This document shows positions 30,152 to 39,100 of a stretch of DNA of 45,869 bases, in pieces. Made by a program: the position numbers and the translations under genes. Under the pieces are notes generated by a model. That model ran no database searches. It had not been told where the DNA came from and saw only the letters and a program-made list of their open reading frames with translations. The stretch spans positions 124,001 through 169,869 of the forward strand of contig NOWV01000172.1 in NCBI GenBank assembly GCA_003344405.1. The letters are read 5' to 3'. Positions within the stretch are counted from its first letter, which is position 1. Every line of letters starts with the position of its first letter. This DNA comes from Trichoplax sp. H2. Its lineage: Eukaryota.

Positions 30152-33100
30152 CTATTTAGCCCACATTTCGGATGCTACAGGGACTTCAATTTCATCTTGC
30201 ACTTGAGAAGGTAAGTTAGGAAAAAAATTGATACCAGATAACGCCTCGATATCACGTATACTTGTGGTATGATCTAATAGGTAAACGTCGGTCAACTGCA
30301 GCAATAAAAATCAAAAAGGAGTATTATATAATTAGTCCTCATTCCTATTAACATTATATAACGCCTAGTTTATCAGTTTTAGTAAGTTTACCTGTCCTTG
30401 TGGTTTACGTGAGTTGAGATGCGGTAAGACAAACGATATGACATCAATTTTACCCTGACATGGGTCTATTGCCTTTTCATTTTTACTATCTGCCATTTTC
30501 TTTGTAGTTTGACATTTAACAAATATCTTATAAAAATGCGTGGGAAGGACAACGGTATCGATTGCACCATGAATCCAACTAATTTTGTTAATAAGAGTAG
30601 ACTATTAATATACACATAAATTAAAAATCTGATTCATAAAGTTTTATTTCTAAGTATTAATTTTTAATTTTTCGCCGAGCTTACTAGGAAGGATCGCTCC
30701 AAATTTTATTCCGATCACCAAGAACTAATGAACCTGAAAGGACATAAACACTGCCATATTTTTTAGCCCAAGTTCTCGTTAAGCTTTCGAGGTTAAGCCA
30801 AGGGCCTAGTATAAAGCAGTTTTTATTATTAATTAACAAACTACAATTGTTATTGTTAGATTTAAGCATTGATACCGACATGCTACGATGTATCGAGATA
30901 CTAACCTGCGTTAAAATTATGAATTTGCGGGGCTATATTGGATAGCAAGTAGGTATTAGCTTGCGCCTCTGCATCAAAGTTCATGTCACCTTTTTACAAG
31001 TCATGAGAGATTTATTAGTTGCCGATATATATTTGTATAAAAATTATCAGCGACTAACATAGCAAACACTAAATTTATTGCTGTAAGCTTAAACATTCAA
31101 GATTGATATGCTAAATCAAAGTTATTGCCTTGCACCACAGCAAATTACACATGATTCAATGATTTTCATACTACGACAGTTTGATGCAGTAAAGCTACGG
31201 GTACTCTTTGCTCGTTTTATATTCGAATAAAGTAATAGCAATAATAATATAAATTCAGAATAGGATAATTTTTCTTTAAATTACCCTGGATCTAAAGAGC
31301 ATGGCAGCTGGAACTGCTTATTAGAGTAAAGTTACGGTATACCAGTTTTTAGGTATTAATATTTACAGGTTAAATATTTAAATATACGGATAGTGTACGG
31401 TACTTTCAAATATGTACGATGCTTATGCATGCAAGTTGAAATTATCCTCAAATATACTCTATCGAATGATATCTGCCGGTATTTAAAATAATCTAAGATC
31501 ATTAGTATTCTATCTTTATCCAATACTGCTTTTATGTACCATACCGTTTGGAGCCATATGGCCACGATCGTAGCCAGATCTGGAGTAGCTGGTACAATTA
31601 GAAGCTTGAGATGCAATGGACAATCGAAGATCACGTCGGAAACAATCGTTTCTCTTTAGGAACCCTGAAGCTTCCTAGTGGCATAAATAATTTCATTGAC
31701 AACAATACTTTAACATGTAAGAACTCCGCTTAAGCTAATACGTCAAGAAGGTCTAAATTAATTCTGTACCTTAGTTGTTATTTCATAGCCTACAAACCAA
31801 GGTACTCGATAGGTGTTGCTATAACTGGTGATGTAATGATTTTGATATAGGATGCAAGTATCAAGAGATACTCGATATTCTGGAATACCCCATGGGAAAT
31901 TCATCATTTGAGCAGCAGACTCTAAATGAAAATCAAAATTCAACGTTATTAATAGCAACGATAAATTGGATTAATTAAACTTAAATTATCATGATCTATT
32001 TTAAGATGATTCTGTTACTGTATAAGAAGACAATTAAATGCTTATTTATATGAAACCTTCTTGCGTAGTCATATTGAGCGCTTGATTGTACAGAGTCAAA
32101 TTCGCTTTGACAACACTCTACAAGATTTAATAAATAATTTTACATAAAAAAATTTTCAAGTATTGAAAAAATTAAACATTTCAGTTCGATAACAAAAATT
32201 GGACAGATAATATTATAGCTCATGATAAAAATTTAATATTCTATTTTTAAAATTTTTTTATTGAATATCAATTTAGGCTTTAGCAAATGGCAGGTGTTGC
32301 TTATTTGTATAAATTCTATAGCTTTTGCAGAGCGTTATTCCTTTCACTATATCTATCATTAACATAATGCTAAATATAATGCACGGAACTTACGCGGCAA
32401 TAGGGACAAACACAGCTCGAACATCGAGCTCTATCTTCAAATAAAGCAGTATCTGCCGGTATACGGCAAACTGGACCTGGCTGACTCGGAGCTTGCGGGG
32501 TAGCAACGCCTGGATTCCTTAACATGGCTCTCAGTGATCCTAAGACGCCATTATTCTTGGCTGGCTTAATGCCTAGTAACTCTATATATTAAAGATTTTA
32601 TATTTAATTATCAGCAGGTACACATCAATTGCTATCCTTTTCTTTGCTGTAGAATAGATTAGAAACAACGTACTTGTCATGACATTATATAGCTGAATAT
32701 TTAAAAATGGTTTAATCTTCTTAGAGCTGTGAAATCCAGGGCCTGAAGCCATAAAAATGGTCCTCATATCCTTTTCCAAATTATCCCAACCACTTGTAGC
32801 TAACCCACACGCTGTATAATTGGCGTCGTATCTAAGACATAAATTATATAAAATTAAAATACTACTCACTTGTACCTACGAGTGAAGCTATATTGCCATT
32901 TTAATATATTTACTTACATACGTCTAACCAAGTAACCATCCACCATTATGACTATTACATCAGGGATACGCCTAATAAGAAGTAGATTTTAAATGATCAA
33001 GTTAAGATTAAAAAATAGAATAGTTAAAATAAAATTAAGATCTTATATTCCTTTATGATAAATTAGTAGCTAAATCATTAATGCTCAAATTACTTTGAAA

Positions 33101-36100: not shown

Positions 36101-39100
36101 ATTACCTCATTCGATGTTGGACCATATCTAGCTCCTGCTAGTTGAACTTGATCGAAAGTCATGGTAATGAGTTGTGGCCTGGTGTACGAGTAACATTGGT
36201 ATTAAAAATGTATCTCAATCTAGTTATATTTGATCTATTTTTAAAAAATCATAAAGCGCATTATTAATCACAAATTAGATTATATCTGCAAGCAACCGTT
36301 TATCGGCAGGCATATCAAGCCATTGAAAAAACTGAGTAACGCGATCCATAGTCGTGGCATTCCTATAGTCACAAAAAGTATTTAAATTAGAACTGATGAT
36401 GTTCTTGGCATCTACAATTAGCTGTTCATTACTTACATGTTGGGAGGAAACCGATAATTGGGATGATATCCTATAATAAATCATTTCAAAAATAGAAAAA
36501 CAGTATTATACTACCAATTTACAACAGTATTACTAATATTTAAGACGTTATATTTCTTGAACTGATTTCAAATACTATAATTCATTTAATGTCAACTCTC
36601 TTACTGTCGTCCTACCTTGGAAATTGGCTTGATCTCCTGGCCAAGAGTAGCTTGCTGTAGTAATATTATTTTTGTTAGCGGTTACCCAAATCTATAGAGA
36701 TGGATAGCCAAAAGTAAAACTTAACATTAAACTTAACTTGAGATAGAGATTTTAGAGCTTTTTATTAGATATACGGTACTATATTACTGTAGACTTACTG
36801 GTTCACCACCCCACCATTTTTCTTGGGTTCCATTGACGCCCTTAAAATCAAAAGTTTCTTGAAAATTGGGATCGTAAAAATTATCAGCAACAATGCCATG
36901 ACTAACTGGGTATAGACCCTAATTAGTAGAAAGAAATGACGAATTTAGAAAAACTTTATCTCATTACTATTAATAAAATGTAAATGTAAAGAATTCAAAT
37001 TCCGATAAAAGGATATTTATCATGTACTGTTAAAATACTGTAGAGATTTGGCAGCGTTTGCGTGGGGAAAACTGGTTTCATATAGTCTGCTTGGGTACCC
37101 TTGGAAGCAAAAGCGGAAATATTGGGTGTTTGACCACGATTAAGATAATCCCAACGGAATCCATTGAGAGAGATGACCAGTAAAGGTGCAGGAGTTATAC
37201 TACATTTGCAAATAAAGCGCTAATGGATCAGCAATTGTCAGTTATAATTTCATGATTGTATCTCTAGCATCTCTTAGGTGTATTAAATTCTAAATTACAA
37301 TAATTCTTTTACCACTCTGAAATGTGTTAGTGGAGCTACCGATTTAATGAAGCTTGTAATCATTAAATTAACCTGCATGGTGGGAATGTTATTGGTGGTA
37401 GGGTAGTTGCTGGTGGAGTTGTAGGTTGTTTAGTAGCCGGTTGTGTAGTAGCAGGTGGTGCAGTTGTCGATTGCTCAGGTGTGGCTGAATTCGTGGATTG
37501 CGTAGTAGCAGGTTTGGTTGAGTATGTGGATTGTGCTGTAGGTGACGATGTTGGGCACAAATTGCCGCCTTGTTGCCCTTGATTTACACCTATTGAATTG
37601 AGTAATTATTGATTCAACTACAGAACTATTAGCACGGCTTTTTGGCGCAGAATTATCTGACTATACAGTTACAGACCTCTTTGGTTAGCAAACCAGCCGA
37701 TCATGAACCCAAGACCGAAAACCACACCAATTACGAGAATGCCGCCAACCTGAATAAAAAATTAAGAATGGTGGAGGAAAAGATTATTTAATTAAAATAT
37801 GAAATTTTAATCTTAAATTTAAAATTATTCTAAATTTTTCGCTTCACTAAAGTGGCCGTTCCATAATAATATCACGGCTTAACTTTTTTAAATTATTAAA
37901 ATTCATCTCGTAACGAAAAGGTATAAATTAGGTATTTCCACGCAAAATGTAAGATCATCGTACGGCGACATCCTATATTAGTAACTCAATTCGTTATCCT
38001 TTAATGTGTGCTTATAACCAAGTTATAATTAATCGCAGATTTTATTCAACATTCACAGGGCTATCCTGCAGCGATATAATATTCGTTCATCGTATTCGTG
38101 TCACTAGAGCTCACCCTAAATCCAAACAATACGTTATATATTTTCTTTTATCTGAAAGTAAGGAAATACGGTCCTCTACGGCAACAACAAAATTTAAGTA
38201 CCGTACCGTAATTAATCACTAATGGAAAGAAGCAAATTCATGAGTAAGGAATACAATCATAAGCGAATAAGGAAGCATTATTTATAAGTAAAACGAAGAA
38301 GTTTATACTATAAATAAATAAAATAATGTAATATTACGATGGAATTGGGTTGATTATGCCTCTGCTTATTAACATACAAGAAAGTCCAGATATATAGCAG
38401 TGAAATTGATTGGATATGTCCACCAAAATGAATCATACTATGGTTATAAGCTTATATACTATAAAGTAAAAATATTAATATTACTACTAAATACGACAGA
38501 CTTATGTTTACACCTGTCACGTTAACATATACTATAAATTGAAAAAAAATTATCAGTTATCTACGTAAAATCGATGACTACTGAAATATATTATAGTCAC
38601 CAAATTATTATCCAATGGATAAATGAACGCTTGTATAATATTTGTGTAACTAGGGTCCAGCTGCCTATCTATAACAGTTTTCAACTATATGCATGCTTGT
38701 GTAAATTCATATAAGCGATTTCAATAGATTTCGATAGGAAAATAAGATTTTGCTATTGCGGATAAATCGTAAAATTGAAATCCGTCGCCATATTTATTAC
38801 GAGCTAAAGGCTGGTTACAGAAACCAGTATATCATTAGATCCGATCGTTCTCAAATTCAAATCTTTGAGGTTCATTACTTACGACATAAATAATATTTTT
38901 TCTCCTAGCATCAGCTTTATTGCTGCCTCTAAGACCTTCCACTTCCAACTTTTCTCTCTAAAAAGTAAAATATTTAAAACTATCAGTATGCAAACAAATA
39001 TTTGACTCGACGGCCTCGACTCTGATATAGAATGTTTTAAATAAAATATAAATAAATTTGTTCTATAAGAATGCAACTTCAAAACTACTTCATTCCTGAA

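Follow-up and report, generated by a model that had tools for sequence, protein, structure and literature searches.

The gene considered here, from Trichoplax sp. H2, raises the question of what a two-domain protein does after the active site of its first domain has been lost within an intact reading frame. The gene (RDD38544.1/TRIADDRAFT_64138) lies at 30152..41797 on the minus strand of the window, by which the whole analysed stretch of 45,869 nucleotides is meant (contig NOWV01000172.1, positions 124,001 to 169,869, assembly GCA_003344405.1). It has the layout of vertebrate ENPP1, ENPP3 and ENPP2 (autotaxin) and of snake-venom phosphodiesterase, in which a Cys-rich linker connects a phosphodiesterase (PDE) domain to a NucA-like nuclease (NUC) domain behind it, and its database names, 'uncharacterized protein' or 'Endonuclease', were assigned automatically. 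An earlier reading of the DNA letters (hereafter the original prediction) had described the PDE domain as a pseudoenzyme in an intact frame. What is decisive for the interpretation was absent from that prediction, namely a complete nuclease motif in the second domain and canonical paralogs adjoining the gene. With this context, the product of the gene is probably a nuclease anchored in the membrane, in which the PDE domain has been kept as a scaffold, the mirror image of vertebrate ENPP1-3.

Loss of the two-zinc site in the phosphodiesterase domain

The PDE domain is readily recognized. It scores 226.2 bits against PF01663 (cut-off 23), single exons already reaching 33-70 bits, and matches to solved structures of ENPP1-3 span both domains at E values of 1e-72 to 1e-89. 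Active-site correspondences were taken from HMMER alignments of the Trichoplax adhaerens model XP_002115076 (P0001) to snake-venom PDE (5gz4) and autotaxin (6leh). From T256 to H424 the residue numbers of human ENPP1 are higher by a constant 80, and the zinc ligands carry the numbers used in the original prediction. According to PMC8808174, seven conserved residues of ENPPs hold two zinc ions that are essential for catalysis, and roles are named there for Thr256, Lys255, Phe257, Lys278, Tyr340 and Lys528. The corresponding positions are as follows.

37163..37165 (-): N140 (AAT), replaces the Zn2 ligand Asp (D218 position)
37052..37060 (-): Q175-T176-L177, nucleophile Thr kept, flanking K255 and F257 replaced
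36880..36885 (-): D197-N198, replace the catalytic Asn N277 and the lysine-claw residue K278; D197 is GAT at 36885-36883
36130..36144 (-): Q296 and A300, replace the Zn1 ligands D376 and H380, exon 36178-36106
35749..35754 (-): D343-H344, Zn2 ligands kept (SDHG motif)
35264..35266 (-): G393, replaces a Cys found in 13 of 13 other sequences
32792..32794 (-): S447 (AGT), replaces the Zn1 ligand His (H535)

Four of the seven zinc ligands are replaced (N140, Q296, A300 and S447), and T176, D343 and H344 remain. The original prediction, which had read the loss of all three Zn1 ligands and of one Zn2 ligand from a frame without stops or frameshifts, was exact in this: the change of SLDGF to SLNGF is N140, the lost D376 and H380 are Q296 and A300 in the structure alignments, the lost H535 is S447, the Asn lost in HGIVAD is D197, the nucleophile of PTQT and the SDHG motif are kept, and the frame of 841 codons is intact. 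In a 14-row alignment the five changed columns hold D, N, D, H and H in 13 of 13 other sequences. Eight PDE columns were taken as key positions, and the studied gene is changed at five of them; among 315 PDE-domain copies from 303 proteins in which all eight are filled, 288 are canonical throughout, a count that is descriptive only, as redundant members of clusters are included. One further sign of inactivity that had been put forward, the change of PNHY to PNLY, did not hold up as diagnostic, as the active autotaxin also has PNLY.

The replacements extend beyond the metal site into the substrate slot. K255 has become Q175, F257 has become L177, K278 has become N198, the aromatic residue at the Y340 position is P260, and K528 corresponds to T440, by which the base-stacking pair (the equivalents of F257 and Y340) and all three lysine-claw positions are replaced. 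The suggestion that the domain might be kept as a nucleotide-binding module is disfavoured by these replacements. Beside the former His site, C442 is retained, which from the annotation of human ENPP1 we take to be the probable disulfide partner of the Cys lost at G393. Two-metal phosphodiester hydrolysis by this domain is very unlikely, now that the Zn1 site has gone together with the catalytic Asn and the slot for the nucleotide; we regard the loss of this activity as highly probable.

A complete motif in the nuclease domain

The second domain presents the opposite picture. It scores 134.9 bits against PF01223 (cut-off 23) over residues of about 576-831 and matches EXOG structures at E 5.5e-22 and Drosophila EndoG structures at 1e-21. 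Its motif string, SGYDRGHMAPN ... LLSNIAPQ ... FNAGPW ... LE, holds the complete D-R-G-H / N / N / E set, located as follows.

31558..31569 (-): D656-R657-G658-H659, DRGH motif intact
30786..30939 (-): N681 (SNIAPQ), N690 and E698 intact; the range includes an intron

The motif in exon 21 is matched by SGYDRGHMA in Drosophila EndoG (3ism) and by ARGH in Anabaena NucA (1zm8); with exon 22 alone, no solved structure was matched at E up to 1. In nucleases of the Serratia/EndoG type the His of DRGH is catalytic and the conserved Asn is a Mg2+ ligand. The DRGH motif of the His-Me finger and the Asn motif that follows it are shared with EndoG, EXOG, Anabaena NucA and Serratia nuclease, all of PF01223. 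Those stand-alone nucleases are single-domain proteins, mitochondrial or secreted, whereas the studied domain follows a PDE-like domain in the same chain and is carried on a membrane stalk.

The comparison with ENPP1-3 runs the other way. Their NUC domain contains no catalytic residues according to PMC8808174, and in PMC5714182 (group 21) proteins of this type are likewise without the catalytic His. Fish, tardigrade, tunicate and nematode proteins in our alignment also have no catalytic His in the NUC domain. In the studied gene it is thus the PDE site that is lost and the nuclease motif that is complete, unlike in ENPP1-3 as far as these sources describe them. We consider it rather likely, from the conserved motif and the slow evolution of the domain described below, that the intact nuclease domain cleaves DNA and RNA at the cell surface.

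Gene structure and protein layout

The gene consists of 25 exons with 841 codons and contains no internal stop. When the exons are joined by coordinate and read on the minus strand, all 24 introns are of the GT..AG type. The exons are short and the window is AT-rich (29-38% G+C). The features of the gene are listed below.

41795-41797 and 30152-30154 (-): start (ATG 41797-41795) and stop (TAG 30154-30152)
41780..41797 (-): exon 1, start codon and MENRIE, matching a loose RNA-contig end at 38959; GT donor
38883..38957 (-): exon 2, cytoplasmic tail; RNA joint 37749 -> 38883
37677..37749 (-): exon 3, in translation a single transmembrane helix VGGILVIGVVFGLGFMIGWF behind the basic tail
37373..37589 (-): exon 4, stalk rich in Thr, Pro and Gln by composition
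32394..37199 (-): exons 5-18, ENPP-type PDE domain (PF01663, residues about 131-510) and start of the Cys-rich linker
(-): PDE exons 5-9 at 37199-37028, 36918-36799, 36691-36616, 36470-36437 and 36362-36297
(-): PDE exons 10-14 at 36178-36106, 35856-35748, 35656-35613, 35530-35464 and 35371-35340
(-): PDE exons 15-18 at 35266-35196, 32971-32918, 32831-32674 and 32581-32394
30152..31921 (-): exons 20-25, DNA/RNA non-specific endonuclease domain (His-Me finger; PF01223, residues about 576-841)
(-): NUC exons at 31921-31770, 31674-31545, 30989-30906, 30805-30685, 30578-30392 and 30295-30152

Ahead of the PDE domain the protein has a basic tail of 31 residues, one hydrophobic helix and a stalk of 73 residues, 18 of which are Thr and 14 Pro. 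The predicted protein contains 10 N-glycosylation sequons. By the positive-inside rule it would be a type II ectoprotein, with a single-pass anchor like that of ENPP1 and ENPP3. Unlike ENPP1-3, it has the Thr/Pro-rich stalk in place of somatomedin-B domains, none of which was found by Pfam on exon 4 or on the whole protein. Exon 4 alone matched no family, and the whole protein matched PF01663 and PF01223 only, apart from a Sulfatase match under its cut-off. A candidate first exon at 37942-37971 was ruled out by RNA contigs that join 37749 to 38883 and this to the exon at 41797-41780. Within intron 1, at 41122-41737, a run of N at about 41300 is flanked on both sides by open reading frames with near-identical translations, which suggests that one flank of an assembly gap was duplicated.

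Transcription and agreement between assemblies

Contigs from three RNA-seq runs of one study (X5, X6 and X9) contain the spliced form. All 15 RNA joints listed coincide with exon borders, and the 8 further joints equal the number of remaining introns in the stretch. Coverage by a DNA-like run (X1) is even across the introns, and no joints occur in it. As the RNA contigs of three runs carry the joints and the DNA-like run carries none, the studied gene is expressed and correctly spliced.

The active-site residues are the same in XP_002115076 from T. adhaerens and in RDD38544.1 (P0060) from Trichoplax sp. H2, which come from separate assemblies. The protein encoded in the window equals the latter over the shared parts and differs from the former at 2 residues. 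The replacements of D by Q, of H by A and of H by S each need at least two nucleotide changes. Since two independent assemblies agree and three of the changes need at least two base changes each, base errors, a concern of the original prediction, are excluded. Alternative exons that could supply the canonical ligands had been a second concern, and none was found when the window was searched by tblastn with P0002 and P0003, two canonical paralogs; within 30152-41797 only the modelled exons were matched, apart from one stray match on the opposite strand at exon 1 (E 1.6).

Both public models of the gene contain errors. XP_002115076 skips exons 9 (36297-36362) and 12 (35613-35656), both of which are present in the RNA contigs. 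In RDD38544.1 15 residues of exon 5 (37028-37072) are missing, the nucleophile Thr among them, and its first 129 residues belong to the upstream gene, the annotation wrongly fusing two genes.

Paralogs, homologues and the survey of domain pairs

The studied gene is one of four tandem ENPP-like genes. Two of the others, TRIADDRAFT_58867 and TRIADDRAFT_58868 (P0003 and P0004; H2 orthologues P0005 and P0002), keep all eight PDE columns together with the nuclease motif NRGH..N..N..E. The upstream neighbour P0071, known from a partial public model of 409 residues, has its last three exons at 43908-45869 (-). Its nuclease motif is partly degenerate (EKGH, SNIVPL, FKTG) and its last zinc-ligand His, at the H535 position, is kept, which suggests from the sequence that this copy and the studied gene are diverging in opposite directions.

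The two canonical Trichoplax paralogs are 54-60% identical to the studied protein per domain, share its architecture and, like it, have an intact (D/N)RGH..N..N..E motif. The same is true of cnidarian proteins named 'venom phosphodiesterase-like', at 36-47% identity per domain. Unlike the studied gene, the paralogs and the cnidarian homologues are canonical in each of the eight PDE active-site columns. The cnidarian proteins in which both sites are kept come from Nematostella, Hydractinia, Porites, Rhopilema, Sanderia and Pocillopora (a split model). As a separate observation, the cnidarian ENPP1/3-like proteins P0006-P0012, P0064 and P0065 have a canonical PDE domain and a complete DRGH..N..N..E motif. 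Because cnidarian ENPP1/3-like proteins keep the PDE site along with the full nuclease motif, the dead NUC domain seems, from the sequences compared, to be a bilaterian condition.

For a survey of domain pairs, the studied gene and the proteins P0002-P0208 were used, P0060 being left out, and this gave 53 PDE-NUC pairs with all columns filled.

PDE canonical, NUC degenerate: 34 of 53
PDE canonical, NUC intact: 10 of 53
PDE degenerate, NUC degenerate: 8 of 53
PDE degenerate, NUC intact: 1 of 53, the studied gene only

The doubly degenerate pairs include proteins of crayfish, crinoid, brittle star and avipoxvirus and one copy in a bivalve protein. An acorn-worm protein and one copy in a limpet protein also look degenerate, and as their columns are incompletely filled they stand outside the 53. 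Like the studied protein, the crayfish XP_045599499, crinoid XP_033110700, brittle star XP_072045902 and acorn worm XP_070555665 proteins have lost at least two zinc ligands from a PF01663 domain that is still recognizable, and so have the proteins of Dreissena and Patella (one copy each) and the avipoxvirus CNPV048-like proteins. The NUC domain of these proteins is also degenerate, unlike that of the studied gene, and a dead PDE domain with an intact NUC domain occurs in 0 of 8 such pairs. Apart from this pair survey, at least two zinc ligands are replaced in the ENPP proteins P0152, P0110, P0116, P0157, P0062, P0067, P0106 and P0153, which come from crayfish, crinoid, brittle star, acorn worm, zebra mussel, limpet, avipoxviruses and Acropora (ENPP4/5-like). 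Taken at sequence level, this points to repeated and undescribed origins of ENPP pseudoenzymes.

Evolutionary rates and constraint

The full-length Trichoplax sequences, three in number, group together as one clade (support 99 in the PDE tree and 100 in the NUC tree), and the studied gene is the first branch within it. Measured as maximum-likelihood path from the common node, the PDE domain of the studied gene has reached 0.61 vs 0.22-0.29 in the paralogs, which makes it about 2-2.8 times faster. For the NUC domain the path is 0.33, and 0.36-0.50 in the paralogs. Tajima tests with six outgroups agree with the trees: in the PDE domain 38-61 unique changes stand against 20-31 in the paralogs (p<0.05 in 10 of 12 tests), and in the NUC domain 12-22 stand against 15-26, the studied gene being faster in 0 of 12. 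As the PDE domain alone is accelerated and the NUC domain is not, relaxation is moderate in extent and confined to the PDE domain. In bilaterian proteins the picture is reversed, with end branches of 1.7-2.5 for the NUC and 0.6-1.0 for the PDE domain.

Much of the PDE domain has been retained. Of its near-invariant columns 66 of 77 are unchanged, as are 13 of 15 columns of conserved Cys, and it still matches bacterial NPPs at E about 1e-79. With an acceleration of no more than 2-2.8-fold, this indicates that its fold is still under constraint. The 11 changed columns are not an unusual number; when the Rhopilema protein or a fish ENPP1, both canonical, is treated as the odd one out in its turn, it also differs at 11 of 87-88 columns. 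What distinguishes the studied gene is which columns have changed, namely the catalytic ones, and not how many.

The strains compared are the closely related H1 and H2 lineages. The differences listed between them, 3 synonymous and 4 non-synonymous with 3 of the latter within the PDE domain, are too few for a ratio of non-synonymous to synonymous substitution rates. More distant placozoan orthologues were found neither in the near-length search nor in the representative search, and when shorter proteins were searched for, the matches were all NPPs at about 34-39% identity; of those with names, most were bacterial.

Proposed function and competing explanations

The four tandem genes are taken to be copies, specific to placozoans, of an ENPP1/3-like ecto-enzyme. 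The ancestral state would have been a competent two-zinc PDE joined to a competent His-Me nuclease, as may still be found in the two sister copies and in cnidarians. In the studied copy the PDE site would then have been dismantled, with the Zn1 site, one Zn2 ligand, the catalytic Asn, the base-stacking residues, the lysine claw and one probable active-site disulfide going in the process. The protein is predicted to be a glycosylated endonuclease for DNA and RNA that acts outside the cell from a type II membrane anchor; H659 would serve as general base and N681 would bind Mg2+. The PDE-like domain would be kept as folding, secretion and stability partner of the nuclease domain, because the two domains may fold and travel together as in ENPP1-3, with the dependence reversed. 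For ENPP1-3, PMC8808174 describes such a dependence, which is seen in an interdomain disulfide, the lasso loop, a glycan and defects of secretion. The neighbouring canonical paralogs could trim the oligonucleotide products to 5'-mononucleotides, and a role of the system in the external digestion by which this animal takes its food is a conjecture. Like ENPP1-3, the protein would combine one catalytic domain with one dead structural partner. We hold this membrane-anchored nuclease with a PDE-derived scaffold to be the preferred reading, at somewhat better than even confidence. Of the earlier inference, it upholds that the domain is not a catalyst in an intact frame (four of seven zinc ligands and the Asn gone, the gene expressed, 66 of 77 columns kept), and it leaves the structural spacer as a plausible role, one that fits the mutual dependence of PDE and NUC in ENPP1-3 described in PMC8808174.

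Several points weigh against the preferred reading. Of the four residues of the Zn2 site three are kept, T176, D343 and H344, which would be superfluous in a pure scaffold and may mean a one-metal site. An acceleration of 2-2.8-fold would also be expected from slow decay, and the lineages compared are H1 and H2 only, whose differences are uninformative, with three of four listed non-synonymous ones in the PDE domain. Finally, an intact motif is no proof of nuclease activity, nor of an accessible His-Me face in the two-domain assembly.

One alternative is that both domains are non-catalytic and that the protein serves at the membrane as a receptor or binding protein, such as one for extracellular nucleic acid, which would use the nuclease fold only for binding. 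Wholly non-catalytic ENPP-like proteins do seem to recur, as 8 of the 53 pairs are doubly degenerate, but in those proteins the nuclease motif has been lost, whereas here all seven of its residues are intact and the NUC domain has not been accelerated, and we regard this alternative as unlikely.

The remaining zinc-site residues leave room for the main rival reading, in which the PDE-like domain is an altered enzyme with a residual one-metal site (T176, D343, H344 and N140) that acts on another substrate or by another chemistry. The nucleophile and two Zn2 ligands are kept, an Asn at the D218 position can still ligate a metal, and some other enzymes of the alkaline-phosphatase superfamily work with one metal, which supports this reading. 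On the other hand, nothing is left of the Zn1 site, the substrate slot or the lysine claw, the catalytic Asn is missing too, and the rate of the PDE domain has roughly doubled; the zinc ions are also described as essential in PMC8808174, and such a site is distinctly unlikely.

Incipient pseudogene formation in a redundant duplicate, with the changes in the PDE domain as early decay, might be proposed for a member of a tandem array of four copies with a faster PDE domain and with most of its listed non-synonymous strain differences there. It is, however, improbable for a frame of 841 codons over 25 exons that is intact in two lineages, is spliced correctly in the transcripts of three RNA runs and has a NUC domain no faster than in the paralogs, and whose changes fall on active-site columns while structural columns are kept. 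An artefact of sequencing, assembly or annotation, or a supply of canonical residues from alternative exons, for which one could point to the two public models (one two exons short, the other fused and 15 residues short), is already refuted by the residues shared between two assemblies, the fit of RNA contigs to exon borders and the tblastn result, within the sensitivity of tblastn for short exons.

Other features of the window and earlier literature

At about 2900-18530 (-) the window contains two tandem paralogous genes with exons of the patatin-like phospholipase type and GGGxxG and GxSxG motifs; single exons reach 18-25 bits against PF01734, below its cut-off of 27.7. Between 18716 and 20276 there are direct repeats of 71-237 nucleotides with 97-99% identity, 743-868 nucleotides apart, which flank a run of N in a block of higher G+C (0.37-0.38). 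They may represent a recent tandem duplication or an assembly artefact at the gap.

A literature search, with most subscription journals outside its coverage, returned no paper that names the studied gene and none on ENPP pseudoenzymes. ENPP-type proteins with an intact DRGH were not described in the papers found beyond the His-Me classification paper, the link between Trichoplax and ENPPs came up in one incidental mention only, and no relevant paper on a digestive nuclease in placozoans was returned, a match on Nematostella merely listing an accession.

Significance for the ENPP family

ENPP1-3 are drug targets in mineralisation, in cyclic GMP-AMP (cGAMP)-STING signalling and in lysophosphatidic acid (LPA) signalling. 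According to PMC8808174 their NUC domain is catalytically dead, and the PDE domain depends on it for stability and secretion. The studied gene amounts to a natural reciprocal experiment, as in the same two-domain chassis it is here the nuclease motif that is intact and the PDE domain that is dead. Activity of the nuclease would show that either domain can be the structural partner of the other, and that pseudoenzymes exist in the ENPP family; the fusion would then have begun as a bifunctional ecto-enzyme that digests nucleic acids.

As a tentative proposal, to which we give less than even confidence, the ancestor of ENPP1-3 may have been such a bifunctional membrane ecto-enzyme, combining a non-specific endonuclease with a 5'-nucleotide phosphodiesterase; bilaterians would have lost the nuclease site and kept the scaffold, and the Trichoplax array would represent subfunctionalisation in both directions. 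If this is true, the array would hold the studied gene as nuclease-only, P0071 with a partly degenerate nuclease and two copies with both sites, and the ancestor would have been a line for nucleic-acid digestion in one protein that is still present in cnidarians and placozoans. It would also explain the long-noted and so far unexplained 'nuclease-like' domain of human ENPP1, ENPP2 and ENPP3.

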